Assembly: GCA_963674745.2 (NCBI GenBank)
Contig: CAXXDV010000001.1
Span: 2,464,001 to 2,528,000, forward strand
DNA length: 64,000 bases
Source of the DNA: Desulfosudaceae bacterium
GTDB lineage: Bacteria; Desulfobacterota; Desulfobacteria; Desulfobacterales; Desulfosudaceae
Direction: 5' to 3'
In this document: positions 1,687-48,731 of the stretch, piece after piece
Numbering within the stretch: position 1 is the first letter of the stretch
How the letters are laid out: each line of letters opens with the position of its first letter
Notes under the pieces: generated by a model
What the model saw: the letters and a program-made list of their open reading frames with translations, nothing else
Told to the model about the DNA's origin: nothing
Databases searched by the model: none
Position numbers and translations under genes: made by a program

Positions 1687-1753
1687 AGCCATCCTGTTAA
1701 ATAGAGTTCATATGTTTGGTATTCACAATCAATCAAATCTCGATTTCATCCAG

Positions 1754-2515: not shown

Positions 2516-2551
2516 CTTCTTCCTTCTTTTGGGTTAGGGGTTAATTTTTAA

Positions 2552-5500
2552 TTAATTCCCTGCTGCTACGGCGACGGTTATCTGCAGGTCGCTGAAATGT
2601 TTCATGTCGATGGCTTTCTGCGGACAGGCGGCGGCGCATATCCCGCAACCCTTGCAGAGAGCGGAAATGTTTTCCGCCCGAAAACCAAGCCCTTCAACCT
2701 TTTTCAATCGGATTGCGCCAAAAGAACAGGAGATTTCACATAAACCGCAACCAATACAAAGGTCTTCGTTTACCTGAGAAACAATCGGCGTAATTTCCAT
2801 TTTTTCGCGGGAGAGAACGGTAACCGCGCGTGCCGAGGCCGCCTGGGCCTGGGCGATGGACTCTTCGAGAAATTTAGGATAGTGGGCCAGTCCGCAGATA
2901 AACACACCATCCGTGGCGCAGTCCACCGGTCGAAGTTTGGCGTGGGCCTCGGCCAGGAAGTCTTCGGCATTGGTCGAGACTTTAAACATCCGGGCAATGT
3001 CTGAATGATCGGCCGGTGTGATGGCGGTCGCCAGGTTGACCAGGTCGGCTGCAATTTCAATATTCATACCCAGAATCGGGTCGAACACGGTTACGGCAAG
3101 ACTTTCGCCGGTTTCTTCAACCCGGGGCTTTCGGTCCGTGGTATAGCGGATGAAAATGACGCCCAGTTCCCTGGCTTTTTTATAAAGCAGCTCTTTCTCC
3201 CCGTAAGTCCGGATATCCCGGTAGAGTATATAGACCTGCCTTTCCGGATTCTGCTCTTTTAAGAAAATGGCGTTTTCAACGGAAGCGGTACAGCATATTT
3301 TTGAACAGTATGGCCTGTTCTCATCTCTTGAACCGACACACTGAATAAATACCACGCTCTGTGCGTCGGCCAGGGCGGGATGATCGTGGAAATCATGCCA
3401 GCGGGTGACGCGGTCGCTTTTACCATACAGGTATTCTTCGGTATCTGCCGCCGATCCCCCGGTGGCAAGAATGGCCGCGCCGTGCCGGATTGTTCTGTTG
3501 CCGTCGCCGTTTGCCACTTCGGTGTCAAAATTACCGATGAAGCCGGATACACTGGTGATCCGCGTTGCGGTCATGACTTCGACGTCCGGATGCGCCGAAA
3601 CGTTTTCAATCAATTTGTCCAGATGGTTCCGGACAGCCTGGTTTTTATGGCCGGTCGCCGCTCCGCCTAATTGTTCAGACCGTTCAATTATTACGGCCGG
3701 AAAGCCCTGGTCGGCCAGGCTTATGGCCGCTGTCATCCCCGCAATGCCGCCGCCGATCACCAGCACATGCTTGTCGATGTCGACCGTGGAAGCGGATAGC
3801 GATTCCAAACGGTTGGCCCGGGCCACCGACATGGCCAGCAAATCTTTGGCTTTTTCCGTGGCCGTTTCTTTCTCGTTCGAGTGGACCCAGGTGCACTGGT
3901 TCCGGATATTGGCCATATCGAACAGAAAGGGATTCAGGCCGGCGTTTCTGAGGGTTTCCTGGAACAGCGGCTCATGCGTTCTGGGCGTGCAGGCGGCCAC
4001 GACGACCCGGTTTAAGCCCTTTTCGCTGATTATTTTGGTCATCACGTCCTGGGTGTCCTGGCTGCAGGTAAACAGGTTTTCCTGGGCGTAGGCGACTCCC
4101 GGCAGTGTTTTCGCGTATTCGACGATTTGCGGTACATCCGCTATGCCGCCGATATTGGAACCGCAGTTGCACACGAATACGCCGATTTTCGGTTCATCTC
4201 CGGACACGTCCGATTCCCGGGGGAATTCTTTCTGCCGCGTCAGGGAGCCCCGGGCCGGGGCCAGCATCCTTGCGGCGCTTTCGGCGGCGGCACTGGCTTC
4301 TACCACTGATTCCGGGATGTCCTTGCAGCCCCGGGCCACGCCGGCCACATAAATACCCGGCCGGGATGTCGCCGTCGGAAGCAAAAGGTCTGTTTTAACA
4401 AATCCGGAGTTGTTTAATTCAACGTCGATGCTTGCGGCCAGTTGCACGGTCGCCTTCGATGCTTCCATGCCCACAGACAGCACCGCCAGATCAAATTCTT
4501 CTTCAACAATCTGTCCGGATTCGTCGATATATCTGAATCGCAGGGTGCCGTCCGGTTTCTCGGTGATGGTATGGACTCTGGAGCGGACGAAACGGACGCC
4601 TTCCGTCTTGGCCCGCTCGTAATATTTTTCAAAATCCTTTCCGTAGGTACGGATATCCATGAAGAAAATGGATGCCTCGAAGTCCCCGTGAATATGCTCT
4701 TTGGCAAGCATGGCCTCTTTGAGGGCGTACATGCAGCAGACGGATGAACAGTACTGGTTGTCGCACCGGTTTAAATCTCGGGACCCGACGCACTGGAGCC
4801 AGGCGATTTTTGACGGTTCCTTTCCGTCGGAAATGCGCTTGATGACCCCCTTGGTGGGGCCGCCGGCCGACAGCAGTCTTTCAAATTCGATACTGGTGAC
4901 GACATTGGCGTAGCTGGCGTACTGGTAATTGTCAAGATGTGACGGGTCAAACGGTTTAAGCCCGGTGGTCATGATGACCGCCCCGACGTTCAGTTTAAGA
5001 TCAGCGCCGGTGTCGTCAAACCGGATGGCTTCCGTGGGACAGAACTTTTCGCAGGCTTTGCACCTCCCGTTTTTAAAATAGATACAACTATCGGCGTCAA
5101 TTGCATATTTCAGGGGTACTGCCTGGGGGTAGGGCACATATATGGCCTTGCGGATATCAATGCCTTCATTGTATTCGTTGACGACTTTCTTGGGGCATTT
5201 CTCCGCGCATGCGCCGCAGGCGATACATTTTTCCATGTCCACGTATCTCGGAGACTGCCTGACAGTGACGGTAAAATCGCCTGCTTTTCCGTCAATGGAT
5301 ATCACTTCGGATAAGGTGAGTAACTCGATGTTCAGGTGCCGGCCGACCTCGACCAGTTTAGGTGAAATAATTCACATGGCGCAGTCGTTGGTGGGAAAGG
5401 TCTTGTCCAGCTGTGCCATGACACCGCCAATGGCCGGGGAAGATTCCACCAGGTAAACAAAGTATCCGGAGTTGGCCAGATCCAGGGCGGATTGCATACC

Positions 5501-28691: not shown

Positions 28692-31600
28692 ATGTCCGAC
28701 AAAACGGGGTCAGTGCTTATCGTCGGCGGCGGTATCAGCGGCATGCAGTCGGCGCTTGATCTGGCCGATTCTGGTTATTACGTTTACCTGGCCGACAAAT
28801 CACCGTCCATTGGCGGTGTTATGGCGCAACTGGACAAGACGTTTCCCACCAATGATTGTGCCATGTGAGTGATCTCGCCTACACTGGTCGAGGTCGGCCG
28901 GCACCTGAACATAGAGATACTTCCCGATTCGGAACTGCTGGACGTTGCCGGCCAAGCCGGTAATTTTACCGCCACCCTGAGGCAGTCCCCTCGTTTTATT
29001 GATATTTCCAAGTGCACGGGATGCGGTGAATGTGCAGATGCCTGTCCGGTGGATCTTGTGGATGATTACAACGAAGGGCTGGCATTCCACAAAGCCACCT
29101 ACAAACAATACGCCCAGGCCGTTCCCGGTGCTTATGCCATCTGCAAAGGCGATACGGCTCCCTGTCGTTTGGCCTGCCCGGCCCATTTGAATGTCCAGGG
29201 TTATGTCCAGATGGTTAAAGAAGGGAAATATAAAGAAGCCCTTGAAATTATAATGAAAGACCTCCCGCTGCCAGGCGTTCTGGGCCGTGTCTGCCCCCAT
29301 GAATGCGAGAATGTCTGCCGTCGGGCGGACGTTGACGCGCCGGTTGCTATCCGCAACCTCAAGCGTCTGGCCGCGGACATGGTTGATCCCCGGGAAATTA
29401 AAATCGAATGCGCACCCCGGCGGGACGAACGGGTGGCGATTGTCGGTTCCGGTCCGGCCGGGCTGTCGGCAGCTTACCAGCTCGCCCGGCAGGGAATTGG
29501 ATCCACCATTTTCGAAGCCCTGGAAAAACCAGGCGGTATGCTGCGGGTGGGTATCCCCAATCATCGTTTACCCGAAGACGTGCTGGACCGGGAAATTGAA
29601 GTCATTACCAATCTGGGGGTGGAAATCAAAACCAACACCCGCCTGGGCCGGGATATTACCATTGACGGCCTGTTGGCGGATGGTTACAAAGCGGTTTATC
29701 TGGCTCTGGGCGCCCACCAGGGAACCTCTCTGAGTATGCCCGGCGAAGACACCGCCGGTGTTCGTCAGGGCGTTGATTTCTTAAGGGAAGTGAACCTGAC
29801 CGGAACGACCGAAGTGGGTAAAAAGATTGCCGTTATCGGTGGTGGGAACGTGGCCATTGACGTCTGCCGGGCGGCTGTTCGTCTCGGTGCCGAGGAAGTG
29901 ATTATTGTTTACCGCCGGACCCGGGCGGAAATGCCGGCCTGGGAAGAAGAAATCGTGGCTGCCGAAGAAGAAGGCGTTCAGATCAAGTATTTGAAATCAC
30001 CCAAGGAAGTCCTGACAGACAACGGACGGGTGTGCGGCCTGCGCTGCATTGAGATGGAACTTTCCGAGCCTGACGAGTCCGGGCGCAGAAGACCGGTACC
30101 GGTTGACGACAGTGAACATGACCTTGCCTTTGACCAGATCATTCTGGCTATCGGCCAGCGGCCGGATACCGCCGCTCTGGAAGAAGTCGACGGCGTGGCC
30201 ATGGAACGGTGGGGTGGTCTGCAGGTGGATCCGATTACGTTTCAGACCGGAAAGCCGGGCGTGTTTGCCGGAGGGGATGTTCAGACCGGCCCGGATATTG
30301 CCATTGCCGCCATTGCCGCCGGCAAGGAGGCGGCTGTTTCCATAGAAAGGTACCTGGATGGCGTAGACCTCCAGGCCGGCCGTCAGCAGACAGCGCCTGA
30401 AAATCCGGATTATCAACCGGTCCCCACAGATGCGGAACCCGGAACGCGGGCAGCCATGCCGGAACTGGAACCCGCCGACCGCCGGACCAATTTTGCGGAA
30501 GTGGAGCTGGGATACGGTGAAGAAGAAGGCCGTGCCGAGGCGGCCCGATGTATCAACTGCGGTTATTGCTGCGAATGTTTTCAGTGCGTGGAAGCCTGCA
30601 AGGCGGAAGCCATCAATCACGATATGACCGGCGGGGTCAAAGAACTGAACGTGGGCGCCGTCATTATGACCCCCGGGTTTGAACCTTTTGATCCGTCGAA
30701 ATTTGATAACTATAGTTACAGTCAACTGCCGGATGTGATCACCTCCATGGAATTCGAGCGGCTGCTGTCGGCGTCCGGTCCCACTGCCGGCCACCTGGTC
30801 CGGCTGTCCGATCATCAGGAGCCCAAAAAGATTGCCTGGCTCCAGTGTGTCGGTTCCCGGGACATCAATCGCTGTGACAACGCCTATTGCTCTTCGGTTT
30901 GCTGTATGTACGCCATCAAGCAGACCATCATCGCCAAGGAACATGCCGGGGATGACCTGGATTGCGCGGTTTTTTATATGGATATGCGGACCCATGGCAA
31001 GGACTTCGAACGTTATTACAACAAGGCCAAGGATGAGGTCGGTGTCCGGTTTATAAACAGCCGGGTGCATACCATCCTGCCGGACGAAAAGACCAATATG
31101 TTGTCGTTACGGTACGTTATGGAAGACGGCCAACTGGCATTAGAAGAATTTGATATGGTCGTGCTGTCCATCGGCATGGAGGTCGGTGCCGATGTGGTCG
31201 CCTTGTCCGGTAAGCTGGGCGTTGAACTGACGGCCGGTAATTTTGCCAAAACCCTGCCGTTTACGCCGGTGCAGACGTCACGTGAAGGCATTTTCGCCTG
31301 CGGCGCTTTCCAGAGTCCCAAGGATATTCCCCAGTCGGTTGTGGATGCTTCGGCTGCTTCGGCTTCCGCCGGAGAACTGTTGAGCGAAGCCCGCAACACC
31401 TGCACGGTTACCAGGGAAGTCGTTCCCGAGACCAATGTTATCGGTCTGCGGCCGCGCATCGGTGTTTTTGTGTGTAATTGCGGCAGTAATATCGCCGCTG
31501 TGGTGGATGTCCCGGCGGTCCGGGATTACGCGGCCACTCTGCCATATGTGGAATTCGCAGACGACAACCTGTATTCCTGCAGTCAGGACACCCAGGAGAG

Positions 31601-33134
31601 AATGACCGAATTGATCAAGGAGAAAAATCTCAACCGGGTGGTGGTGGCGGCCTGTACGCCCAAAACCCATGAACCGGTTTTCCAGGAGACCCTGATCAAT
31701 GCCGGCCTGAATAAATACCTGTTTGAAATGACCAATATCCGAAACCAGGATTCCTGGGTTCATCGGAACAACCCGGAAATCGCCACGGAAAAAGCCAAAG
31801 ATCTGATCCGTATGTCCGTGGCCCGGGTGGCCCTGGCTGAACCGCTGGAAGAAGCAGAGCTTCAGGTCAATCCTGTCGCCCTGGTCATCGGTGGCGGCAT
31901 ATCCGGTATGACGTCGGCCCTTTCCCTGGCCCGCCAGGGATATGAAACCCACCTGGTGGAACGTGGCGACCGGCTGGGCGGGCAGGCGCTGAACCTGTTC
32001 AAGACCGCTGACGGCACCGATGTCCAGAAGGCCCTGGCCGAACTGATCAAGGACGTTTCAGCACACGATAAAATCAGTGTTTACATGAATGCCGAACTTG
32101 TCTCGGTTGAAGGTTTTGTCGGTAATTTTAAATCAATCATTTCCAGCAGCGATCAGGAGACAAACCTGGAACACGGCGTGGCCGTGGTGGCCACCGGCGC
32201 TTCGCCCTATCAGCCGGATGAATATGCCTACGGCCAGGACCCCAGAATTATTACCAGCCTGGACATGGATAAAAAATTCATGGCCGATGATCCCGCCCTG
32301 ACGCAGATCGATTCGGCGGTTTTTATCCAGTGTGTCGGCTCCCGGGAACCGGAACGGCCCTATTGCAGCCGGGTCTGTTGTACCCATTCAATTGACAATG
32401 CCCTGGAACTGAAAAAACGCAATCCGGACATGAACGTGTACATCCTGTACCGGGATATCCGCACTTACGGTGAGCGTGAGTACCTGTTCCGTGAGGCGAG
32501 GGAAGCCGGGGTGATTTTCATCCGTTACAAGCTGGATGACAAACCAATCGTGTCTGTTGACGGTGACAGCCTGACGGTTACGGTGAACGATCATGTGCTG
32601 GGACGCAAGTTGGCGATCAATACGGACCTGCTGACACTGGCCACGGCCATTGTGCCCAATGAGACAGAGAAACTTGCCGGATTCTTTAAAATATCGGTAA
32701 ATGATGACGGCATGTTCGCCGAAAAACATGCCAAGCTTGGTCCGTCCGAGTTTGCCACCGACGGGGTTTACCTTTGCGGGATGGCCCATTATCCCAAACC
32801 TGTTGACGAAGCCGTGGCCCAGGGCAAGGCGGCGGCATCGCGGGCGGTGACCCTGCTTTCCCGGGAAATTGTTCATGCCAGCGGCAATGTGGCCCGGGTG
32901 AACCCGGCTAAATGCAGCGCCTGCGGCGTATGTTTGTCCATCTGCCCCTATTCGGCACCGTCCTTTATCGAGGCAGATGCCCGATTCTTTCCCGGCAAGG
33001 CCCAGATCAACCCGGTGCTTTGTAAAGGCTGCGGTCTGTGTGTCGCTTCCTGCCGGTCAGGCGCCATCATGCTCAAGGGCTTTGACAACAACCAGATATT
33101 TGCCCAGATTTTTGCGTTAAAGGAAACAGGCTGA
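28692..33134 (+). CDS. hdrL: HdrL-type large HdrA fusion with inserted NAD(P)H-binding GltD-like module (selenoprotein, 1480 aa)
   Basis: [26 protein letters not shown]...[12 protein letters not shown](28866-28868) in frame with ORF 28869..33134. Internal [17 protein letters not shown] and IGGGNVA module between HdrA segments. Confidence 0.92.
28884..28901 (+). promoter_or_regulatory. Bacterial SECIS-like hairpin (hdrL)
   Basis: CTGGTCG-AGGT-CGGCCGG, 16 nt after the UGA. Confidence 0.8.
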
Positions 33135-33156
33135 ACAATTACGGATTGATAGAAAA

Positions 33157-33311
33157 TTGATGAACTCGTGAATATTTAAAATTGAGATGGCAAAGTAAAA
33201 AGTTCAAGATCAAGGCGCGCAAGCCCTGAGGAATGCAGCGTACATAGGAGTACGTGAAATTCCGAAGGGAGCAGCGCAACGCAGATGTTGGGCTTTTTAT
33301 GAAGCCATCAA
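33157..33311 (+). mobile_element. 155-bp MITE/REP-like element, copy A
   Basis: Ends TTGATGAACTCGT.../...TTTTTATGAAGCCATCAA; 134/155 identical (ungapped, by hand) to the reverse complement of 33759-33913. Confidence 0.8.
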
Positions 33312-33330
33312 AATCGTATGGAGAAAAATA

Positions 33331-33762
33331 ATGTCCGAATGGGAACCAAAAATAATGGCGTTTCTCTGCAACTGGTGCAGTTACGGCGCGGCCGATCTGG
33401 CCGGCGTCAGCCGGATGCAGTATCCCCCCAATATCCGGGTCGTCCGGCTGCCCTGCACCGGTCGCATGAGCCCCAAATTTGCCCTGGCGGCCCTGCGTGA
33501 AGGCGCGGATGCCATCTGGGTGTCCGGGTGACATCCGGGTGAATGCCATTACCTGGAAGGTAATTATCACGCCAGAAGAAAATTTTCGTTGTTTAAGAAC
33601 CTCATGGAATACATGGGGGTGGAACCGGAACGAATCCATTTTTCCTGGATCTCTTCGGCGGAATCCACCAAGTTCGTGGACGTGGTCAACGCGGTCACCG
33701 ATGACGTAAAGAAAGTCGGACCCAACAAACGGTTTGTCAAAAAAATCGACAAGGAAACTTGA
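33331..33762 (+). CDS. flxD: MvhD-like subunit FlxD (selenoprotein, 143 aa)
   Basis: [15 protein letters not shown]...PCTGR...WVSG-TGA(33529-33531)[12 protein letters not shown]...WISSAE; open frame to TGA 33760-33762. Confidence 0.92.
33548..33564 (+). promoter_or_regulatory. Bacterial SECIS-like hairpin (flxD)
   Basis: ATTACCT-GGA-AGGTAAT; compensatory closing pair relative to the other mvhD. Confidence 0.8.
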
Positions 33763-33913
33763 TGGCTTCGTAAAAAATTCAATATCGGCGTTGCGCTTCG
33801 CCCTTCGGAATTTCACGTACTTCTATGTGCGCTGCATTCCTCAGGGCTTGCGCGCCTTGATCTTGAATTTTTTACTTTGCCATCCGAATATTAACTTTTT
33901 ACGAAGGCATTAA
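33759..33913 (-). mobile_element. 155-bp MITE/REP-like element, copy B (inverted relative to A)
   Basis: TIRs TTGATGGCTTCGTAAAAA ... TTTTTACGAAGGCATTAA; overlaps the flxD stop codon. Confidence 0.8.
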
Positions 33914-33920
33914 GCTTGAT

Positions 33921-34868
33921 ATGCGGGCATATTCAGAGAAAATACGTCAGATTGCGAAATCGCTTCTTGAGGCCGGCCGTGTCGATATGGTGATCGGTTT
34001 TACCGACGGTACACTGCCGATGAAATCCGCACCGCTTTGCGCCGGAACCGTTGAAGCGGCCGATCAGCTGATGATTGACGCCTTTTGCGGCATTAACCTG
34101 GCCAACTACCTGACCGGTCGCAAGGAAAAGATCGGTGTTGTGGCCAGGGGGTGTGACTCCCGGAGTATTGTCAATCATATCGTGGAGAACAAAATCAAGC
34201 GGGAGCAGCTGGTGATTATCGGTGTTCCCTGCACGGGCATGGCGGACCCGAAAAAAGTAGCCCGGGCCTATGACGGTGATATCAGTGCGGTAGTGGACGA
34301 AGGTGACATGCTGGCCGTCAGCGGCAGCGGGGGTGAAAGCCGGATCGAAAAAGCGGCCGTGATGGATGATTGCTGCGCGGTTTGTGTTCATCGTAATCCG
34401 GTCATTTCCGACGAGATGGTCGCAGACCCCGTGCCGGAACAGGACGGGGCCGGTCGGTATGAAATGGTGGAGACGGTTGAAAACATGTCAACCGACGAAA
34501 AATGGGATTATTTTGAATCCATGTTTTCTTCCTGTATCCGCTGTTATGCCTGTCGCAATGCCTGTCCGTTATGCTATTGTCCCACCTGTTTTGTGGATGA
34601 AACAGCACCCCAGTGGGTCGGTAAAGGCCAGGACGATGTCGACGTTCGGACGTTTCATTTTCTAAGGGCCTATCATTGCGCCGGCCGGTGTGTTGACTGC
34701 GGTGCCTGCGTCAGGGCCTGCCCCATGGATATCAACGTCCGGTTGCTGACCAAGAAGCTGGAAAAAGACTGCCTTGAGCTCTATGACTGGGAAGCCGGCA
34801 TGACCTTAGAAAAACGCCCCGTTCTGGATGTTTTTTCACCCAATGATCCGGATGGATTTATTAAATAG
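33921..34868 (+). CDS. flxC: Flx complex Fe-S subunit FlxC
   Basis: CIRCYACRNACPLCYC, CVDCGACVRACP and GVPCTG; operon position. Confidence 0.82.
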   Translation: MRAYSEKIRQIAKSLLEAGRVDMVIGFTDGTLPMKSAPLCAGTVEAADQLMIDAFCGINLANYLTGRKEKIGVVARGCDSRSIVNHIVENKIKREQLVIIGVPCTGMADPKKVARAYDGDISAVVDEGDMLAVSGSGGESRIEKAAVMDDCCAVCVHRNPVISDEMVADPVPEQDGAGRYEMVETVENMSTDEKWDYFESMFSSCIRCYACRNACPLCYCPTCFVDETAPQWVGKGQDDVDVRTFHFLRAYHCAGRCVDCGACVRACPMDINVRLLTKKLEKDCLELYDWEAGMTLEKRPVLDVFSPNDPDGFIK

Positions 34869-34882
34869 TGATAGAGGAGTAA

Positions 34883-35929
34883 ATGGCCAAAATAATCAAA
34901 ATCGACAAACAGAAATGGCAGGATAATTTCAGCCGACTGCTGGGGACGTATCGCGTTATTGCGCCTCGGGTTGAGGACGGCGTCTGTGAGTTCCGTCAGT
35001 TGACGGAAGGGCAGGTGCCGGACCTGGCCTTTGCCAACACGCGCCGGTCCCCGAAAGCGGTTGTGTTTCCCCAGACCGAAGTTATGATGGCATATTCTCT
35101 GGATGAGAATGACCCGGAGAAAAATATCATGAAACCGGCTGTTGACAACTTTCCGCTGACGGCGGTGGTGGGTATCCGGCCCTGTGATGCCAGAGCGCTT
35201 ACCCTGGTCAGGTTGAATTTTGACACGCCGGAATATCAGGATCCGTATTGGCTCGGGCATTATGAAAACACGGTTTTCGTCGGCCTGGCCTGTGACGCTC
35301 CGGATGCGGTCTGTTTCTGTTCTTCCACCGGCGGCGGTCCCTATGATGAAACCGGGCTTGATGTGCTTTTGTCCGACAGAGGCGATTTTTTCCTGGCCAA
35401 AGCGTTTACCGATAAGGGAGAAAAGATTTTAGAAACAGCCGGTTGGCAGGATCCGTCGGGCGATGACAATGCATTTGACGCTTTGCAGAAAGCAGCTGAG
35501 GAGAAGATCGTTTCGGCCGTCTCAACCGACCATCTGGCCGAAAAAAGCCTGCTGGATCTGCATTCAGCTCCCTTCTGGGACAATATCGCCTTTGCCTGTA
35601 TCAATTGCGGCACCTGCACCTATCTTTGTCCGACCTGCTGGTGTTTTGACATTCAGGATGAGGCTCAAGGAAAAAAAGGTGTGCGCATGCGCAACTGGGA
35701 CAGTTGCATGTTCCCTTTGTTTACGATGCACACCACCGGGCATAATCCAAGAGAAGAGAAAACGCAACGGGTACGTCAGCGCTTTATGCATAAGCTGAAA
35801 TATTTCGTGGATAAATACGACCAGGGGATCATGTGCACCGGCTGTGGCCGTTGTGTCCGTTCCTGCCCGGTCAATATTGATATCCGAACGGTTTGTAATC
35901 GGATGAACGATTATGCGGCCGAAGCGTAA
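34883..35929 (+). CDS. flxB: Flx complex AsrA-like Fe-S subunit FlxB
   Basis: GIRPCD, CINCGTCTYLCPTCWCF, RFMHKL and CTGCGRCVRSCP. Confidence 0.85.
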   Translation: MAKIIKIDKQKWQDNFSRLLGTYRVIAPRVEDGVCEFRQLTEGQVPDLAFANTRRSPKAVVFPQTEVMMAYSLDENDPEKNIMKPAVDNFPLTAVVGIRPCDARALTLVRLNFDTPEYQDPYWLGHYENTVFVGLACDAPDAVCFCSSTGGGPYDETGLDVLLSDRGDFFLAKAFTDKGEKILETAGWQDPSGDDNAFDALQKAAEEKIVSAVSTDHLAEKSLLDLHSAPFWDNIAFACINCGTCTYLCPTCWCFDIQDEAQGKKGVRMRNWDSCMFPLFTMHTTGHNPREEKTQRVRQRFMHKLKYFVDKYDQGIMCTGCGRCVRSCPVNIDIRTVCNRMNDYAAEA

Positions 35930-35955
35930 AGGCGTATAACCCGGGAGAAAAGTTA

Positions 35956-36801
35956 ATGATGAATCCATATTTGCCCTATCCGGTCCGCATTGATGATATC
36001 AAAAACGAAACCGAAGACCGGAGCTTAAAAACATTCAAGTTTGTGTTTATCAATCCTGATGATGAAGAACGGTTTGCCTACCGGGCCGGCCAGTTCGCCG
36101 AGTTGTCCATTGCCGGGCAGGGAGAGATCCCCATTGGCATTGCCTCTTCACCGGTGGAAAAGGGGTTTGTGAAGTTTACGGTCAACCGCGCCGGTGTGGT
36201 GACCACCTGTCTGCACAACATGCAGGTCGGTGACGTGATGGGTATACGGGGGCCGCTGGGTAACAGCTATCCCTGGGACACCCTGCAGGGGAAAAACATT
36301 CTCATCGTGGGCGGCGGCTTTGCCTTTACCACCCTGCGCTCGTCGATTATTTATATGCTTCATCCGGATAACCGTGATAAATACGGTAACATTGACGTGG
36401 TTTACGGTGCCCGGACGCCGGGTATGCTGCTTTACCTAGATGAGCTGGCCGAATGGGAAAAACGGGACGATATCAATATGCATATCACCGTGGACGGGAC
36501 CGATGATCCGGATTGGAAATATCATGTCGGTTTTGTGCCGCCGGTGGTTGAAGACAACGCGCCCGAGGGCGGGCCGGACAGTTACGCCATCATTTGCGGA
36601 CCGCCGGTGATGATCAAGTTTACCCTGCCAGTGCTTGAAAAGCTCGGTTACGCCCATGATAACATCATCATGTCCCTGGAAAACCGGATGAAATGCGGCA
36701 TCGGCATGTGCGGGCGATGTAATATCGGTAAAGAGCTGGTTTGCAAGGACGGACCGGTGTTTACGCTTTCAGAATTGAATCAGACACCGAAAGAATATTA
36801 A
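35956..36801 (+). CDS. flxA: FAD/NAD(P)-binding [2Fe-2S] subunit FlxA
   Basis: GQFAELS, RGPLGN, ICGPPVM and RMKCGIGMCGRC...CKDGPVF. Confidence 0.88.
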   Translation: MMNPYLPYPVRIDDIKNETEDRSLKTFKFVFINPDDEERFAYRAGQFAELSIAGQGEIPIGIASSPVEKGFVKFTVNRAGVVTTCLHNMQVGDVMGIRGPLGNSYPWDTLQGKNILIVGGGFAFTTLRSSIIYMLHPDNRDKYGNIDVVYGARTPGMLLYLDELAEWEKRDDINMHITVDGTDDPDWKYHVGFVPPVVEDNAPEGGPDSYAIICGPPVMIKFTLPVLEKLGYAHDNIIMSLENRMKCGIGMCGRCNIGKELVCKDGPVFTLSELNQTPKEY

Positions 36802-38760: not shown

Positions 38761-39512
38761 CAATATTCGACACTTATCAGAAACAAGCCCTGGGGTGGTG
38801 CGGTAGCGCCGGCCCTGGAGCGGTCTTTTGCTTCCAGAATCTGCCCCATGTCTTCAGGTTCGCGTTTGCCCAGGCCGATCTCAACCAGGGTGCCCACAAT
38901 ATTCCTGACCATGTGTTTTAAGAAGCCGCTGGCCGTAATGTCGAAGAAAATGCGGGCATCCGGTGTCTCATGAATTTCAACCTGCAAGACATGCCGTACG
39001 GAACTGTTCTGCGGGCTGCCAGTGCCTTCAAACGAGGAAAAATCATGCTCGCCGATGATGTATGACAGGGCCCGGCGCATGGCCGTGATATCCAGCGGCC
39101 GGCGGATGTGCCAGGCATATTGGCGGCCGATGGCAACGGGCAGTTCGCGGTTGAGGATCCGGTACTGGTAGGTCTTTTGCCGGGCGTTATACCGGGCGTG
39201 AAAATCATCGGCCGCCTGGCGGCAGTCGCAGATGATCACGTCAACATCCAGCAGGCTGTTTAATCCTTTTTTAAATACATCGGCTGTAAGATGGGTATCA
39301 CACCTGAAACTGGCCACCTGGGCCAGGGCGTGGACCCCGGCGTCGGTGCGTCCGGAACCGATCACCGTAACCTTTTGGCCGGTCATGGTGAACAGCGCGG
39401 CCTCGATCTCGCCCTGGATGGAACGGTCGGTTTTCTGACGCTGCCAGCCGTGATAGTTGGTGCCGTCGTATTCGATGATCAGTTTAAAGGTTTGCGTCAT
39501 ATGAAAGTCCAT
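38760..39512 (-). CDS. truA: tRNA pseudouridine(38-40) synthase
   Basis: YDGTNYHGWQRQ, GSGRTDAGVHA, GFLKHMVR and TAPPQGL. Confidence 0.96.
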   Translation of the reverse strand: MDFHMTQTFKLIIEYDGTNYHGWQRQKTDRSIQGEIEAALFTMTGQKVTVIGSGRTDAGVHALAQVASFRCDTHLTADVFKKGLNSLLDVDVIICDCRQAADDFHARYNARQKTYQYRILNRELPVAIGRQYAWHIRRPLDITAMRRALSYIIGEHDFSSFEGTGSPQNSSVRHVLQVEIHETPDARIFFDITASGFLKHMVRNIVGTLVEIGLGKREPEDMGQILEAKDRSRAGATAPPQGLFLISVEY

Positions 39513-39554
39513 AATAATCGTTTGTCATTAACGAAAAAAAAGACAAAATGCAAG
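39508..39554. repeat. 47-bp direct repeat, copy 1 (truA promoter/start)
   Basis: 43/47 identical to 45040-45086; minus strand reads TTGCAT-17-TAATGA then the truA ATG. Confidence 0.85.
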
Positions 39555-39802
39555 TCGGGTGTATGCAGTTATCGATGGCCTCCTTTTTTCTCTTGATTAT
39601 CTCGGGTGGTTAAAAAATAAACCCTTTTTGAATAAACTCCATGACTTGCGATCGGTCGCTGGTTCGCACAATCTTTCGTCAGGGCAATGTTTAATTTGCT
39701 TTACGGTTTTGTAAAAGCTGCTATAATAATGAAAATTTGAAAACGGTTTATCGGATTATCACGTTTTTCCCTTACCAAAGTTTCAGTTCAGGAGAACGGT
39801 CA

Positions 39803-41311
39803 ATGAAAAAAAGCTTTTTAATCGTGGCACAACTGGTTGTTGTCGCCATGGCCTCATTCGTTTGGGCGGCTCCGGTGCCGTCAACCATAAACTATCAGGG
39901 CTACCTGACCGACGACGCCGGCAACCCCCTGCCTGACGGGAGTTATGATATGACGTTTCGTATCTATGACGTGGCGGCCGGCGGCGCCACCCTGTGGACC
40001 GAAAGCAGGACCGGCCCCAACCAGGTGCCGCTGGTCAACAGTCGCTTCAGTGTCGACCTGGGATCGGTGACCACTTTTGCCAGTGCCGGTCTTGATTTTA
40101 ATCAAGCCTATTTTCTGGAGGTGCAGCTCGGCGCCGATCCGCCTTTTGCCCCGCGATTCGCCTTTACCACGGTACCCTATGCCATGCATGCCGAAAATGT
40201 TGCCGGTACGCCACTTCCGGCCGGGGCAGTGGTGGGGACGACCGATGTGCAGACACTGACCAACAAGACCCTGACCAATTCGGTGATTTCCAGTAGTACC
40301 ATCGACAACGCCACCATCGGCGGGACCACACCGGCCGCCGGGACGTTTACGGACTTATCGGTAAGCGGCGATTTGACGGTGGCCGGGAGTATTATCGCCA
40401 ACATGACCATCACCGGAACCGAGAAAACCGCCGATTATACCCTGACCGCTGATGACGAGATCATTCTGGTGAATACCGCTTCCGGACCGGTGACCGTGAC
40501 CCTTCCCGCAGCCGCCGGCAATGCCGGGCGCACTTATGTTGTGGTTTTGAAAACCGCCGGCAATCCCCTGACCATATCCCCCGACGGGGCGGAAACCATT
40601 AATGGCGGTTCCGCCCTGGTCCTGGACCGATCCCATCAGGCCATCCGGCTGGTCAGTGACGGTACCGGCTGGCGGGCCGTAGGGGAAGTGGGAAATGTCG
40701 CCCTGGTCCGGCAGAACACCGATCTGGACAGCGGCGCCGGCCCGGATACCCTGTCCGACCTGGTGGTGTTGGCGGATATGATCATCAATGGCAGCCAATG
40801 CGTGGGATATGACTGCGCCGTCGGAGAGGTGTTTGATTTTGACACCCTGATCCTCAAGGAAAATAATCTTAGAATACATTTTTACGATACCAGTAACTCA
40901 GGTACTTTTCCCTCCAACGATTGGCGTATTACCGTCAATGACGCCACCAGCGGGGGGCGGAATTATTTTGCCATCGATGACGTCACCGCCGGCAAAAGGG
41001 CCCTGGAAATCGCGACCGGCGGCAATGTCGGCATCGGTACGGTTGACGCCCCTCAGGGAAGACTGGAGGTGAAAAACACCGCCCTGGAGACCGTTCTGAT
41101 GGTGACCGATGACGGCAAGGTCGGGATCGGCACGGCCACGCCCGGTGAAAAATTCGTCATCGAATTCGCCCCCGGGGTGGATATCGAGATCGGACAGGGA
41201 ACGGCTGATCCGGATGTGACCTTCATCGCCCTGAGAAGCCCTGACGGCACAAGATATTACATTACGGTGGATGATGCGGGGAACCTGGTGGCCTCTACCA
41301 TCCATCCCTGA
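39803..41311 (+). CDS. Secreted phage-tail-fibre-like protein (paralog 1)
   Basis: Sec signal; N-domain PSTINYQGYLTD..G.PL.DG.YDMTF; Thr/Gly-rich beta repeats; GSQCVGYDC...LKENNLRI domain; GNVGIGT repeats; C-terminal LRSPDGTRYYITVDDAGNL. Confidence 0.75.
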   Translation: MKKSFLIVAQLVVVAMASFVWAAPVPSTINYQGYLTDDAGNPLPDGSYDMTFRIYDVAAGGATLWTESRTGPNQVPLVNSRFSVDLGSVTTFASAGLDFNQAYFLEVQLGADPPFAPRFAFTTVPYAMHAENVAGTPLPAGAVVGTTDVQTLTNKTLTNSVISSSTIDNATIGGTTPAAGTFTDLSVSGDLTVAGSIIANMTITGTEKTADYTLTADDEIILVNTASGPVTVTLPAAAGNAGRTYVVVLKTAGNPLTISPDGAETINGGSALVLDRSHQAIRLVSDGTGWRAVGEVGNVALVRQNTDLDSGAGPDTLSDLVVLADMIINGSQCVGYDCAVGEVFDFDTLILKENNLRIHFYDTSNSGTFPSNDWRITVNDATSGGRNYFAIDDVTAGKRALEIATGGNVGIGTVDAPQGRLEVKNTALETVLMVTDDGKVGIGTATPGEKFVIEFAPGVDIEIGQGTADPDVTFIALRSPDGTRYYITVDDAGNLVASTIHP

Positions 41312-41340
41312 TGCTAATCTGAAATACAATTTTCACATGA

Positions 41341-42759
41341 GTGACAGCAAGTATGAATATGAATCTTAATAAAGATGGTTGGAAAAGAACCCCTCTGATT
41401 GTTGCCGGATTCCTTCTGGTGCTGCTCCTTTTGGCCGGCGGCTTGTCCAGCGCCCGGGCGGCAAAGCAGGTCGACCAGCTCATGTCTTCGGGCAGTGAAT
41501 GGTTTCTGGGCGCTCAAATCGCTCAATACGGCATTGTCGGTCAATCTTCGCCCCTGGGGGTTGCCGTCAGCCCCGGTACGGCCCGGCTGGTATCCGGTCC
41601 GCTGCTGATGTACAACGGCATCGCGGCTTATTCGGAAGCGGACAGTGACGGCGACGGCACGCCCGATGCCATGGACGCCTTTCCGGCAGATCCTGCCGAG
41701 GATACGGACACGGACGGCGACGGTATCGGCAATGTGGCCGATCCGGACGATGACAATGACGGCGTAAATGATAATGCCGATGCCTTTCCCCTGGATCCCA
41801 ATGAGTGGGCGGATTCGGATGGTGACGGGGTCGGTGACAATGCCGATGCCTTTCCCACCGACCCCACTGAATATGTGGACACGGACGGCGACGGGGTTGG
41901 CGACAATGCCGATGCCTTTCCCGACGATCCGGGTGAATGGCAGGATTCGGACGGCGACGGTATCGGTGATAACAGTGATGATACACCCTTCGGCCCCGAT
42001 GACGTCAAAGATACGGATGGGGACGGCGTAGATGATAACAACGATGCCTTTCCCCTGGATCCCGATGAGTGGGTGGATTCTGATGGTGACGGGGTCGGCG
42101 ACAATGCCGATGCCTTCCCCGACGATCCCACCGAATACGCAGACACGGACGGTGACGGGATCGGCGACGCAGAGGAGAACAACGGGCCCAATAACGGTGA
42201 TGGAAATAACGATGGGATACCCGACAGCCGGCAGGGCAATGTGGCCTCTTTTATTCCCTTTAACGGCCAGGGATATGTCACCCTGGAATCCCCGGCCGGT
42301 ACTTTTCTGAGCGAATGCGGGGCCGCAGACAACCCTTCCGCCGGAGAGGGACCGGATGGGATCGGTTTTCCCTATGACTTTTTGGAATTCACCATCAACC
42401 GGATCGGTGCCGGCGGGGCCACTATTTTGAAAATATATTTTTCGGATCAAGTGGCCGTTAATACCTATTATCAGTATGGACCGACACCGCAAAACCCGGC
42501 AGCCCACTGGTACGAATTTCTGTTTGATGAACTTACGGGCGCGGTCATTGATACCGCCAATCGCGTCGTTACCCTCTATTTTGAAGACGGTGCCAGGGGC
42601 GATGACGAACCGGTGCCGGATGGCCAGATTGCCTGCCTGGGCGGACCGGGTGCCGGTCAGGACGATTCACCTTCTGACGATGACGGGGATGATACGGGCG
42701 CTACGAGTGGCGGATCCGGCGGTTCCGGTGGGTGTTTTATCGAGCAGTTGCGAAAATGA
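41341..42759 (+). CDS. Secreted Ca-binding TSP type-3 repeat protein with choice-of-anchor U-like domain and Gly-rich/CFI C-terminal tail
   Basis: Signal peptide; repeated DxDGDGVGDNADAFPxDPxE units; DGNNDGIPDSRQ...YYQYGPTP...WYEF...DGARGDD domain; ends GGSGGSGGCFIEQLRK. Start uncertain (41341/41353/41359). Confidence 0.78.
   Translation: MTASMNMNLNKDGWKRTPLIVAGFLLVLLLLAGGLSSARAAKQVDQLMSSGSEWFLGAQIAQYGIVGQSSPLGVAVSPGTARLVSGPLLMYNGIAAYSEADSDGDGTPDAMDAFPADPAEDTDTDGDGIGNVADPDDDNDGVNDNADAFPLDPNEWADSDGDGVGDNADAFPTDPTEYVDTDGDGVGDNADAFPDDPGEWQDSDGDGIGDNSDDTPFGPDDVKDTDGDGVDDNNDAFPLDPDEWVDSDGDGVGDNADAFPDDPTEYADTDGDGIGDAEENNGPNNGDGNNDGIPDSRQGNVASFIPFNGQGYVTLESPAGTFLSECGAADNPSAGEGPDGIGFPYDFLEFTINRIGAGGATILKIYFSDQVAVNTYYQYGPTPQNPAAHWYEFLFDELTGAVIDTANRVVTLYFEDGARGDDEPVPDGQIACLGGPGAGQDDSPSDDDGDDTGATSGGSGGSGGCFIEQLRK
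41640..42170 (+). repeat. Intragenic tandem repeats encoding TSP3-like Ca-binding units
   Basis: Recurrent GACAATGCCGATGCCTTTCCC-containing ~63-nt units. Confidence 0.8.
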
Positions 42760-42806
42760 AAAACGTAGGCCCGATGAGGCGTGAAGACCGGGCCGGGAGA
42801 CAGAAT

Positions 42807-44897
42807 ATGCGGAAAACCTTTTTGATTTTCATCATGATCATTGCCGGCCTTGTGCCGGCAATTGTCGGCCGGGCCGCGCCCGTCCCTTCGGTCATCAATT
42901 ATCAGGGATATTTAAGCAACCTCAACGGCAACCCTCTGCCCGATGGCAATTATGACATGACCTTCACCTTTTTCGACAGCCTGACCGGCGGCAGCCCCCT
43001 GTGGACCGAGGTGTGGGACGGGGGCAACCCGGTCCCGGTGGTAAACGGCCGGTTTAACGTCAGCCTGGGCGCTATTTCCCCGTTTGCCGGCACTCCGCTT
43101 CTGTTTGACCGGAACTATTACCTGGAAGTGACCGTCGATACTTATGGCCCCATGGCCCCGCGCCTGGAACTGACGGCGGTGCCCTATACCAATCAGGCCA
43201 GGAACGTCGCTGCCATGGCCGCTCTGTCCGGGGCCGTGGCAGGCACTTCCGATACGCAGACCCTGACGGCCAAAGCCATCGTTGATGGGGCCATCAACGG
43301 CAATACCATCAATGACACCCAGATTACCGCCTCCACGGGGACCTTCACCTCGGTTTCGACCACCGGCGGCCTGACCGCCAGCGGACAAATCCTGAGCCGG
43401 GTCATAATTGATGGGGCGCCGAAAACGGCTAATTACGCGGTGACACCCGCGGACGATCATATCCTGGTGGATGCCTCGGCCGGGACCGTGACGGTGACCC
43501 TCCCTCCGGCCGCCGGCAACGGCGGCGATGCCTGTACCATTACCTTGACGACCGGGGACCCCAACCCGGTCACCCCGGACCTGATCATCAATCCGTCCGG
43601 AGCCGAAACCATCAGCGGCCGGCCGGAACTGCGGTTTTTCCGGCCGGGCCAATCCCTGCGGCTGATCAGTGACGGCGCCAACTGGCAGGCCGTCGACGAT
43701 GTCGGCAATGTCATCGGCCAGTATCTGTTCAGCAACCCCACCAACGGCGGCCTGCTGGTCGGCGGCAGCAACTGCGTCGGCACGGATTGCGCGAGCGGGG
43801 AAAATTTCGATGCCGACACCCTGCGCTTCAAGGAGAACAATCTTCGCGTTCTTTTTAACGATACCAGCGTAATCCCGGATTTTCCCGCCAATGACTGGCG
43901 GCTGACCGCCAACGATTCGACCAACGGCGGCCGCAACTATTTTTCCATCGATGACGTCACCAACGGGGTCTCGGCCCTGATGGTCGCCCCCGGCGGCAAC
44001 GTGCGCCTGGCCGCCGGAAGCGCTCCCCCCTGCGGGCGGCTGGATGTGCAGTCGGCTCTCCGTGATATCGGAACGGTCTCCATCGGGCTGGCGGACGCTA
44101 CCGGGACCATCACCACGGGAGCAGCCTACAACACGTTCATAGATATTATCTCCACTTCAGGCACGACTGTGACCGGTTTGGGTATTACAGGTGGTTTTAC
44201 CGCCACTCTGATCGTCGGTTGTCAAATATCCGCTGTCGGCGAAACCAAAACAGTCGTCGCCATTATTGATAATACGCACCTGGAAGTGGATACCGCCTGG
44301 AGCAGCGACCTGACAAATCAGGGGTTATCCCTGTCTTTAATTCCGGTGACCGGCAGCGGGACCTTGTTTATAGCCGAACTGGCGGCAAGAGGCGAGATTA
44401 CCGCCGGAGGCGATACCCAGGTCATTTACAGCGTTTTCGACAATACCTCTTTAGTAATGTTCGCTCCCTGGATCGCCCTGGCCGGGGCTACCTACCAGGC
44501 GCCCCGGGCCCTGATCGGCAGCGGCACGGCTTTTACGGAGGATATCGGCGTGGGGGATACGGTTTTCGTCGACGGCCAGCCCAGACTGGTGACCGCGGTC
44601 AACAGCGACACGGAAGCCGAATTAGACAAGGCATTTGCGACCATTGCCGCGGGCCTGACCGGCCAGGTGCAAAAACCCGCCTTGCTGGTGGCCGATGACG
44701 GCCGGGTGGGTATTGGCACGATCTCACCGGACAATACCTTTGAAGTGGAACTCGCGCCCACGGTTGATGCCGAAATGGGGCGGGGCACCGCCGATCCGGA
44801 CCTCACCTTCTTCTCTTTGAGAAGCCCGAACGGGTCCCAATTCCATATCCAGGTCGACAACGGCGGCAATCTGTCCGGTTCCCCGATTGTGCCTTGA
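42807..44897 (+). CDS. Secreted phage-tail-fibre-like protein (paralog 2, with extra nested modules)
   Basis: Colinear with paralog 1 (PSVINYQG..., GSNCVGTDC...FKENNLRV, LRSPNGSQFHIQVDNGGNL) plus a ~200-aa insertion; GGAG RBS before ATG 42807. Confidence 0.75.
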   Translation: MRKTFLIFIMIIAGLVPAIVGRAAPVPSVINYQGYLSNLNGNPLPDGNYDMTFTFFDSLTGGSPLWTEVWDGGNPVPVVNGRFNVSLGAISPFAGTPLLFDRNYYLEVTVDTYGPMAPRLELTAVPYTNQARNVAAMAALSGAVAGTSDTQTLTAKAIVDGAINGNTINDTQITASTGTFTSVSTTGGLTASGQILSRVIIDGAPKTANYAVTPADDHILVDASAGTVTVTLPPAAGNGGDACTITLTTGDPNPVTPDLIINPSGAETISGRPELRFFRPGQSLRLISDGANWQAVDDVGNVIGQYLFSNPTNGGLLVGGSNCVGTDCASGENFDADTLRFKENNLRVLFNDTSVIPDFPANDWRLTANDSTNGGRNYFSIDDVTNGVSALMVAPGGNVRLAAGSAPPCGRLDVQSALRDIGTVSIGLADATGTITTGAAYNTFIDIISTSGTTVTGLGITGGFTATLIVGCQISAVGETKTVVAIIDNTHLEVDTAWSSDLTNQGLSLSLIPVTGSGTLFIAELAARGEITAGGDTQVIYSVFDNTSLVMFAPWIALAGATYQAPRALIGSGTAFTEDIGVGDTVFVDGQPRLVTAVNSDTEAELDKAFATIAAGLTGQVQKPALLVADDGRVGIGTISPDNTFEVELAPTVDAEMGRGTADPDLTFFSLRSPNGSQFHIQVDNGGNLSGSPIVP

Positions 44898-45039: not shown

Positions 45040-45086
45040 TCCATAATAATCGTTTTTAATTAACGAAAAAAATGGCAAAATGCAAG
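45040..45086. repeat. 47-bp direct repeat, copy 2
   Basis: TCCATAATAATCGTTTTTAATTAACGAAAAAAATGGCAAAATGCAAG; 4 mismatches to copy 1. Confidence 0.85.
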
Positions 45087-45143
45087 ATGGGGATAAAAAG
45101 TACAGGCAGCGTAATGACGATAGATTAAAAGGAGTTCGGTGCG

Positions 45144-46956: not shown

Positions 46957-46998
46957 ACGTGGTCGAATGCGTCGGAAGACAAAGAAGGGCTTTTTTTG

Positions 46999-48639
46999 AT
47001 GATCGAGGAAAAACGATTGATGAAATGGCCGGCCGCCGGGCTGATTTTTTTGCTGCTTTTCGGTTTTATCCGTCCTTTTTGGGCTCTTTCTGAAGAGATG
47101 GCCGATCAGACCGATGATGTCGTGCTGGAGATGACCCTGGCCGAAGCCATCTCTTTAGCGTTGCGGACCAACCGTTCCGTCCAGATGGCCTATCTGGACC
47201 GGGCCGTTCAAAAGTTTGACCTCAAGGTTGCCGAAGACAAGTTCCGGCCGGATGTTAATTTGGACGGCAATATCAGCCGCACGGATACGGATTATGAAAC
47301 AACCCGGGGGCAGGACAGAACCAAAACCGACACCCTGACCGATGAAATATCCGGAGCCGTAAGCGTTACGGAAACCGTTCCCACCGGAGGGATGTTTCAG
47401 TTCGTCTGGAACCCCTCGCTGAGCGATTCCGAGACCGATGATTTACAGACTGATTCCGGCCTGAGCCGACTGAACTCAGACGGATATACGTCCTCATGGA
47501 ATGTCAGCTTTACCCAGCCGCTTTTAAAAGGAGGCGGTATTGACGTTAATACCGCTTCAGTGACACAGGCCAGGTTGGTGGAGCAGGCCAATATCCTGTA
47601 TTTAAAGTCCACCCTTATCAGCACAGTGACTTCCGTCATTAATGCCTATCGTGCGTTTCAGCAGGTACGGGGGCAGGTTGAGATCAGCAAGGCCTCGCTG
47701 GAAAGGGCCAGAAAACTGGTAGAAATAAACAAGCTGATGATCGAGTCCGGAAGGATGGCCGAGGTCGAATTGGTCCAGAGCGAAGCCGAGGTGGCCAGCA
47801 GAGAGTTCTCCTATGAAGGGGTGTTGAATAATTTTGACCGGGCCAGACTGGCGCTGATCAAGGTTCTGGATATCCCGAAAAACACCCGGTTTATTCTGGC
47901 CGGAGAAGACGATCTCGGGCGAATCGTTCCCGATACGGATAATTGCACCAAAACGGCTTTTAAAAACAGACCGGATTATCTTCAGTCTCTTTTGAGTCTG
48001 GAAGGCACAAAAATAAACCTGATGCTGGCCAAAAACAACCGGCTCTGGGACTTGAATCTGAACGCATCTTATGGTGAGTCAGATAATCGTTCCGAAGAAA
48101 CCATTGACGGTCTGGATGCCCCCAGGTTTAAAACCGACGGTAATGAATGGCGGGTGGGGCTGGATCTCCAGATCCCGATCTGGGGAGACCTTACCCGTGA
48201 ACAGTCCGTCTTAAGTGCGGAAACCAGCCTGAGAAAGGCTAAAATTAACCTGAAGGAGCTGGCCGATAACGTGGAGACGGAGGTTATAGACGCCATCAGG
48301 GATGTTGTGGCCAAGCTTAAACAGGTGGATCTGGCCAGGCTCAGCAGGGAACTGTCCGAGCAGAAACTCATGATAGAGGAGGCCAAACTTAAAGCCGGAC
48401 GTTCCACCAATTTCCAGCTGGTCAGCTTTCAAAACGATCTGGTGAACGCTCAGAACGCCGAGTTGAACGCCATCACCGATTACAGAAACGCTTTGACCGC
48501 TCTGGACCAGGTCCTGGGCACCACACTGGATACCTGGCAGATTGTCTTTAAAAGTGAACAGACGGTTGATGAAAGTGTCTGGCAGGACGGGAGCATGACG
48601 ATTGACGGGGTCAGGAAAAAGCTGAACCGGTCAAATTGA
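46999..48639 (+). CDS. TolC-family outer membrane protein
   Basis: Signal peptide, MTLAEAISLAL, FTQPLLKG and duplicated OEP repeats. Confidence 0.87.
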   Translation: MIEEKRLMKWPAAGLIFLLLFGFIRPFWALSEEMADQTDDVVLEMTLAEAISLALRTNRSVQMAYLDRAVQKFDLKVAEDKFRPDVNLDGNISRTDTDYETTRGQDRTKTDTLTDEISGAVSVTETVPTGGMFQFVWNPSLSDSETDDLQTDSGLSRLNSDGYTSSWNVSFTQPLLKGGGIDVNTASVTQARLVEQANILYLKSTLISTVTSVINAYRAFQQVRGQVEISKASLERARKLVEINKLMIESGRMAEVELVQSEAEVASREFSYEGVLNNFDRARLALIKVLDIPKNTRFILAGEDDLGRIVPDTDNCTKTAFKNRPDYLQSLLSLEGTKINLMLAKNNRLWDLNLNASYGESDNRSEETIDGLDAPRFKTDGNEWRVGLDLQIPIWGDLTREQSVLSAETSLRKAKINLKELADNVETEVIDAIRDVVAKLKQVDLARLSRELSEQKLMIEEAKLKAGRSTNFQLVSFQNDLVNAQNAELNAITDYRNALTALDQVLGTTLDTWQIVFKSEQTVDESVWQDGSMTIDGVRKKLNRSN

Positions 48640-48655: not shown

Positions 48656-48731
48656 TGGTACGCCCGGCAGGATTCGAACCTGCGATCTTCAGCTCCGGAG
48701 GCTGACGCCCTATCCCCTGGGCTACGGGCGC
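48656..48731 (-). tRNA. tRNA-Arg (CCG)
   Basis: GCGCCCGTAGCCCAGGGGATAGGGCGTCAGCCT-CCG-GAGCTGAAGATCGCAGGTTCGAATCCTGCCGGGCGTACCA; 76 nt, full cloverleaf, encoded CCA. Confidence 0.96.

Follow-up and report, generated by a model that had tools for sequence, protein, structure and literature searches.

A short dock motif linked to INYQG fibre genes in separate phyla and a putative fibre-display cassette in a Desulfosudaceae bacterium

The DNA analysed here, a stretch of 64,000 nucleotides of a Desulfosudaceae bacterium (contig CAXXDV010000001.1 of assembly GCA_963674745.2, positions 2,464,001 to 2,528,000; called the window in the following), contains at 39803-44897 a cassette of three same-strand open reading frames (ORFs), A, B and C. 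A (39803-41311, 502 amino acids) and C (42807-44897, 696 amino acids) are tail-fibre-like paralogues that start with an INYQG base domain behind the signal peptide, and they flank the secreted protein B (41353-42759, 468 amino acids), the candidate anchor; the three genes and all domains mentioned below are on the + strand. Our main finding concerns the family to which the two fibres belong: the collected data support that INYQG fibre genes are linked to partner genes carrying a short N-terminal motif, here called the dock. For the cassette itself we lean, if only slightly, towards a role in fibre display, in which B would anchor both fibres through a diverged dock.

The dock emerged when loci with the base domain were collected and their neighbours read, and its profile was built from 29 hand-picked segments. 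It is an N-terminal motif of approximately 57 residues (SxNYxIxxxVIxxGGGxxxSxNYxLxxTLGQxxxGxSxSxxYxLxxGF) that occurs in many neighbours of base genes, and the proteins bearing it end in unlike anchors, namely a type IX secretion system (T9SS) tail, PEP-CTERM, a dockerin or a CFI box. A dock was called at a score of at least 13 bits against the profile. In a hold-out test, for which the seeds of each locus and their near-copies were left out of the profile and from which 11 own-genome or duplicate loci and 3 loci without the base domain had been dropped, a dock was found in 42 of 114 fibre loci (23/27 seed and 19/87 non-seed loci), always on the strand of the fibre; many of the class loci in this set came with 1.5-kb flanks. 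The previously built profile was also applied to loci that were obtained afterwards, from further classes of this phylum, where 19/29 had a dock, again all on the same strand, with 16 of these docks within 134 bp of the fibre gene and 17 within the first 76 residues of their protein. With the same profile, none of five loci carrying only the GSxC domain, another part of the fibres, gave a match.

Counts over genomes point in the same direction. Among 400 genomes of the class, the dock was present in 9, the base domain in 22 and both in 7 (5/7 without the two seed genomes), and 6 of the 11 dock matches lay within 7 kb of a base domain. In Patescibacteria (189 genomes, a count that leaves out the centre genome and one unpublished genome), the base domain was present in 36 of the 41 dock-bearing genomes vs. 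22 of the 148 dock-less ones; here, 31 of 51 dock matches were located within 11 kb of a base domain and 18 had none on their contig. The statement in the original prediction that INYQG genes often sit next to partners with a similar short motif and different anchors held in the hold-out as well as in the prospective test, and the neighbourhood check across phyla that it proposed gave a positive answer. The link between dock and fibre is seen in separate phyla, where unlinked docks and unlinked fibres also occur.

The dock has an internal periodicity. A profile of 75 dock segments is self-similar at lag 19 (z 5.2) and lag 38 (z 3.5), with no other lag above z 1.4, and judged from this pattern the dock is built of three pseudo-repeated units of 19 residues. 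In locus L188, a canonical dock, a choice-of-anchor U domain and a full CFI box are combined in one protein encoded 108 bp behind the fibre gene. Dock and CFI box also occur together in L183, and both proteins match the CFI-box model NF041770. Several variations on the dock were observed. In L170 (6498-7106) and L193 (5034-5858), the partner carries it at its C-terminus and not after the signal peptide, and four loci of Omnitrophota type (L067, L081, L085, L099) have an N-terminal dock on proteins of more than 1,600 amino acids encoded directly after a short fibre gene. Moreover, another divergent dock-like start, S[GS]G...S..T....HNM.P[YF], which the profile missed, was noticed in loci of Desulfobacterales (L014, 2317-3309; L018; L019; L022).

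The fibre side of this linkage is defined by the base domain, which in A spans 39869-40207 (a MAT-N-like beta-sandwich with strands at residues 29-109 of the model, predicted to be the part that trimerises and binds the dock) and in C 42876-43211 (55% identity to A). Both match NF053851, the N-terminal domain model of the mosaic adhesive trimer (MAT) fibres of Bdellovibrio, over model positions 5-80 of 162, A with 32 bits and C with 15 bits (14.9 bits on the whole protein), at a cut-off of 60. All 26 of 26 aligned base-domain homologues match this model at E<=0.01. In a set of 14 control genomes it had no match. By these profile matches the INYQG base is a distant relative of the MAT fibre N-terminal domain and, by the cut-off, not a formal member. 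The base-domain profile retrieved 81,743 clusters (50% identity) at E<=1e-3, and the domain has no Pfam model. It lies within the first 60 residues in 138 of the 150 best matches, and 13 of these 150 carry several copies. Three proteins (P0137, P0138 and P0139) have three base domains in tandem, followed by immunoglobulin (Ig)-like domains in P0137 and P0139. These triples may be single-chain pseudo-trimers and would as such fit a trimeric base. A fold search with the base domain of A gave matches to generic beta-sandwiches only (best Z 6.4), which demonstrates neither novelty nor kinship, and in the ESM Atlas only unnamed clusters were met (0.92 for the base, 0.78 for the N-terminal segment of B). 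In the orthologues of A and C the base domains are well conserved (95/112 and 98/112 positions, respectively).

The original prediction described two paralogous fibres flanking a third secreted protein, and this layout was recovered: the three ORFs are co-oriented, and the alignment of A with C has 47% identity in its 452 columns, rising to 58% in the last 71 residues. The motifs it had listed, PSxINYQGYL, GSxCVGxDC...KENNLR...NDWR and LRSPxG, are present in both proteins, and GxVGIGT is read at two sites of A and at one of C. A consists of a Sec-type signal peptide (residues 1-22; the signal peptides of A, B and C were called by eye only), the base domain (residues 23-135), a stem, a module at residues 201-298 (40403-40696), the GSxC domain (40748-41032) and a tip with GxVGIGT repeat and C-terminal LRSPxG cap (41090-41308). 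The main difference of C is an insertion of approximately 200 residues absent from A (44037-44681), which precedes the cap that A shares and varies in length among homologues. Because the same cap follows in both, the two products are, from their aligned sequences, different in length and not in tip, and the idea of two alternative tips was wrong. Among homologues the modules of A and C are found recombined.

The claim that the system was built from phage-tail-fibre parts proved partly right. The module of A resembles the XD module of T4 gp10: residues 203-298 match the assembly region of TSP4 (7rfv_A) with Z 12.0 and a root-mean-square deviation of 2.2 over 93 aligned residues in the fold search, 24qj_A reached Z 12.8, and the module is also found by sequence in phrog_20556 (E 4e-9) and 21 phage records. 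A weaker likeness to phage parts applies to the stem and to the insertion of C, which resembles a tail-fibre module (phrog_1980, E 8e-4) and had no match in tblastn against phages. In contrast, neither the base domain nor the region of GSxC domain plus cap matched any of 50,697 phage records, and the GSxC domain had no match in PHROGs either, so that an origin of the whole system from phages was rejected. The two cysteines of the GSxC domain are nearly invariant in 21 homologues, which suggests a disulfide. This domain (A 316-410; P0018-P0122) is widespread and mobile, with approximately 100 listed homologues matching only there; it often accompanies an S74 chaperone, as in many fibre proteins, or a T9SS tail, and has no Pfam or PHROG model. 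No S74 chaperone was found in A or C by Pfam at E<=0.1. Trimeric autotransporter adhesins have a C-terminal membrane barrel of the YadA type; Pfam and NCBIfam gave no match to such a barrel, and the C-terminus of the fibres is the LRSPxG cap. The monomer model of A is of middling quality (mean predicted local distance difference test, pLDDT, 64.5), and a sequence search of A against solved structures returned nothing significant.

Protein B, the candidate anchor, has several parts. Behind its signal peptide follows the candidate divergent dock segment (residues 37-94, 41461-41634), then a likely Ca-binding stalk of TSP3-like acidic repeats (41635-42222), the choice-of-anchor U domain (42352-42651) and a short Gly-rich CFI tail (42709-42756), with GGSGGCFIEQLRK as the C-terminal end. 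The choice-of-anchor U domain named in the original prediction was verified (NF041766, 45.6 bits at a cut-off of 32). For the TSP3 repeats, nine DxDxDG motifs with a period of 66 nt speak in favour, but the Pfam model TSP_3 remained below its cut-off (19.6 vs. 25 bits). Similarly, the tail has the expected Gly-rich CFI end, but in a short form: it ends 5 residues past CFI without the 69-position box, and neither B (at E<=0.1) nor its orthologue (at E<=0.05) matched NF041770 (cut-off 40). Since approximately 19 secreted-looking proteins of the genome, picked by eye from 40 pattern matches and 9 homologue rows, end alike, the tail is likely a sorting signal, probably a shortened and so far undescribed version of the CFI box. 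Examples of such short CF[ILF] tails in this genome (G000), which have no membrane helix, are C1:410619-413609, C1:723553-729477, C3:900749-904492 and C3:1468568-1472821, and several proteins of this kind carry a choice-of-anchor U-like domain just before the tail. The search for orthologues of B found one, P0136, with 74% in the N-terminal region. The longest contig is 37,976 bases for the orthologues of all three proteins, which suggests the same A-B-C order in a second species; a close cassette was found in none of 400 class or 390 phylum genomes.

From these elements the following mode of action can be proposed. A, B and C would cross the inner membrane by the Sec pathway. A and C would each form a trimer, as the relationship to the MAT family, the tailspike-type XD module and the natural fusions of three bases in a row lead us to infer. 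A base with three-fold symmetry would call for a partner that offers three similar strand units within a single chain; accordingly, each 19-residue unit of the dock might pair with one subunit of the base, with one dock per trimer. The acidic repeats of B would lift the dock off the surface, at which the choice-of-anchor U domain and the CFI tail would retain the protein. A single anchor could thereby display two fibres of unequal length that end in the same tip. The fibres are probably adhesins.

The critical step is the binding of both fibres to the N-terminus of B, which the original prediction had postulated. Position and a partial motif argue for it. The segment follows the signal peptide, has same-strand fibre neighbours and is separated from an anchor at the far end, as in L188. 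In the MAFFT alignment it is in register with the dock and agrees with it only in the core IVGQSSPLG, for which L177 has VVAQSSPLG, and in the glycine spacing. Furthermore, none of the 29,259 ORFs of the genome reached the 13-bit dock score, and with no canonical dock found in a genome that is 99.96% complete, B is the only candidate found. In the 5.5-Mb genome, A and C are the sole carriers of the INYQG domain.

Several results weigh against this reading, both in the family and in the cassette. No dock was detectable in 72 of the 114 hold-out loci, many of which had only 1.5-kb flanks, in 10 of the 29 phylum loci and in any of six further fibre loci of the own class, and 5 of the 11 dock matches in class genomes had no base domain within 7 kb. 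Moreover, relatives are not independent, so that the co-occurrence counts overstate the linkage. Regarding B, its N-terminus did not match the seed dock profile; comparison of profiles gave a probability of 0.3%; the glocal z was -0.8, with 240 of 300 shuffles scoring as high; and a lineage-tuned profile, constructed post hoc, yielded 5.2 bits (17/1000 shuffles as high, rank 617 in the genome). Nor does the segment stand out by its conservation in the orthologue (40/58 positions vs. 162/196 in the repeats and 94/149 in the anchor domain), and the tail of B has neither a full CFI box nor a membrane helix. Judged by sequence, the N-terminus of B is not demonstrably a dock, it is the least typical dock seen, and its position gives the better case.

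A complex prediction with three copies of A 23-160 and B 36-95, for which B received no alignment beyond its own two rows, to keep true docks from raising the score, passed the mark, but weakly. The score was 0.47 (runs 0.47, 0.50 and 0.41; best of three controls 0.07), a value in the range in which the tool is more often wrong than right unless the interaction is likely beforehand. Contacts agreed between runs to at least 58% and the partner had a pLDDT of 46-47, while the copies of the A base reached 87-88, which is a value per copy and not a score of the trimer. Of 157 solved and 215 mismatched pairs, 116 and 2, respectively, had reached the mark, which gives a rough guide for the present case; at 0.60 or under, 18 of the 157 solved pairs and both mismatches reached it. 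Thus, the postulated docking on B keeps its positional, motif and weak structural evidence but failed in the sequence test with the dock profile.

Alternatively, B might be an ordinary surface protein with a CFI tail, whose dock has decayed or was never there, so that the fibres are released or bind to a partner encoded elsewhere or invisible to the profile. The failed sequence tests, the tail shared by approximately 19 proteins, which makes the layout of B a common one, and the many fibre loci without a dock would agree with this explanation. However, B is encoded between the two fibre genes with gaps of 41 bp behind A and 47 bp ahead of C inside one repeat-bracketed insertion and was probably kept with them in the second species, a protein of this layout has a clear dock in L188, and the complex score exceeded the controls by 0.40. 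Overall, we regard an unrelated B as rather unlikely.

A branched, tailspike-like assembly, with one fibre on B and the second fibre or an unlinked protein attached to the XD module of the first, appears still less probable. It could draw on the match of A 203-298 to the TSP4 assembly region, on the presence of a single anchor gene for two fibres, and on the TSP4 XD domains, which according to the available text of the CBA120 study bind other tailspikes (PMC8825819). But A and C both keep the full conserved base and the XD module, and hence neither of them looks like a dedicated branch. That the cassette is merely what is left of the tail region of a prophage or tailocin, with no cellular role, can be regarded as very improbable, despite the phage-like XD module and an insertion beside tRNA-Arg that is absent beside truA in five relatives: the genes are intact and encode signal peptides, B has a host-type tail, the base domain is missing from the phage records and no phage genes were seen by eye in the window. 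Compared with these alternatives, we prefer the display of both fibres by B, at the slight preference stated above.

The genomic surroundings suggest how the cassette was acquired. The three ORFs sit between truA and a DUF1287 gene and are bracketed by a 52-bp direct repeat, whose left copy (39508-39559, +) overlaps the start of truA and is 88% identical to the right copy (45040-45091, +); genome-wide, only these two copies exist. The same-genus genome G092 has a single copy of the 52-bp sequence at the site and no cassette. In three other members of the family a tRNA-Arg directly adjoins truA, whereas in the window it is found at 48656-48731, and beside truA the insertion near tRNA-Arg is missing in five relatives. 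Taking these three lines together, the cassette was likely inserted into a variable region close to tRNA-Arg. The stretch from truA to tRNA-Arg was seen to be a variable island, with different genes in G092 and empty in three family members. It also contains, 2 kb downstream of the cassette, a lone gene for a TolC-like outer-membrane efflux protein (46996-48639) with no adjacent transporter genes; as exporter of the fibres this protein was rejected, since the cassette proteins have Sec-type signals. A candidate sigma-70-like promoter with extended -10 (39700-39727, +; 10/12 matches, a consensus match only) is situated 75 bp upstream of A, in a scan that found 8 sites vs. a shuffle mean of 4.1. 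No phage, pilus or autotransporter genes were seen by eye in the ORF list of the window, in line with the original prediction. Elsewhere in the window (1-5305 and 28869-36801), several genes for HdrA/QmoA-like flavoproteins and an Hdr-Flx-like cluster were noticed by eye, which are ordinary for sulfate reducers.

The closest published counterparts of A and C are the MAT proteins of Bdellovibrio bacteriovorus, described in the available text of Caulton et al. (2024; PMC10769870) as adhesive fibres that are trimers and carry, after the signal peptide, a conserved domain of approximately 130 residues. This domain presumably binds a surface element, whose identification, according to the same text, awaits study (PMC10769870). 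As in the non-S74 subgroup outlined there, A and C combine a signal peptide and a beta-rich base (below the cut-off of NF053851) with a shaft that is mosaic and phage-like; they lack an S74 chaperone, and a trimer would be expected. Unlike MAT, they belong to a genome that, from its Hdr/Qmo-like genes in the window, looks like that of a non-predatory sulfate reducer, with two fibre copies instead of the 21 given in that text and with a candidate anchor encoded alongside. The cassette would, by analogy, most likely work like a MAT fibre. The shared fold of A 203-298 with the XD domains of CBA120 TSP4 and T4 gp10 (Chao et al., 2022; PMC8825819, available text) is accompanied by clear differences, as A has one XD module in a secreted cellular protein without a baseplate. 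B shares with the families of CFI-box-CTERM (NF041770) and choice-of-anchor U (NF041766) the U domain above cut-off and the Gly-rich GCFI end, and differs from the former in its shortened tail; for both families NCBIfam labels were found and no paper, in a search that did not extend to subscription literature. Likewise, no published description of the dock or of the fibre-partner pairing was found, in a search that did not cover subscription papers or the MAT and Pam supplements.

The Pam system offers a further comparison. The available text of a preprint (Troman et al., 2026; PMC13278184) places PamT at the tip of a pilus and reports that the pam operon is consistently accompanied by a neighbouring tail-fibre-like gene; PamT is presented there as one truncated Ig domain and, in that text, no role is assigned to the fibre. 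The match of our dock segments to the PamT model NF058579 covers its positions 4-92, in the N-terminal part of the model. In five loci of the candidate phyla radiation (CPR; L054, L064, L109, L124 and L125), a chaperone-like gene, a PamT-like gene with N-terminal dock and a PamR-like gene are followed by a giant base-domain fibre gene; the PamT-like genes score 27-51 bits at a cut-off of 240, and the chaperone-like and PamR-like calls were made by reading. The simplest reading of this arrangement would be that the CPR fibre caps the Pam pilus through the N-terminus of PamT. The cassette differs from Pam in having no pilins or chaperones and in B being a stalked single anchor, and the Pam models gave no match in A, B or C. 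Extended to the whole family, these cases could mean a universal plug-and-socket in which the approximately 57-residue three-unit dock binds to the trimeric base of MAT-type fibres and is carried by PamT and by varied anchors (T9SS tail, PEP-CTERM, dockerin, CFI box or membrane helix, depending on the envelope type), the cassette being a deltaproteobacterial-type version with B as a strongly diverged dock for two fibres. We consider this generalisation plausible, at chances a little short of even.

For the present window alone the gain is smaller, as no dock seen is less typical than the putative one of B. For the family, the linkage provides a short and concrete candidate for what the conserved MAT-type base binds on the cell. 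If confirmed, the dock would explain how a large class of anchorless proteins annotated as tail fibre domain proteins are displayed, the base domain being very common (81,743 clusters) and without a Pfam model, and, if the proposed capping of the pilus is true, the unexplained tail-fibre gene beside the pam operon of CPR bacteria would find its place at the pilus tip.

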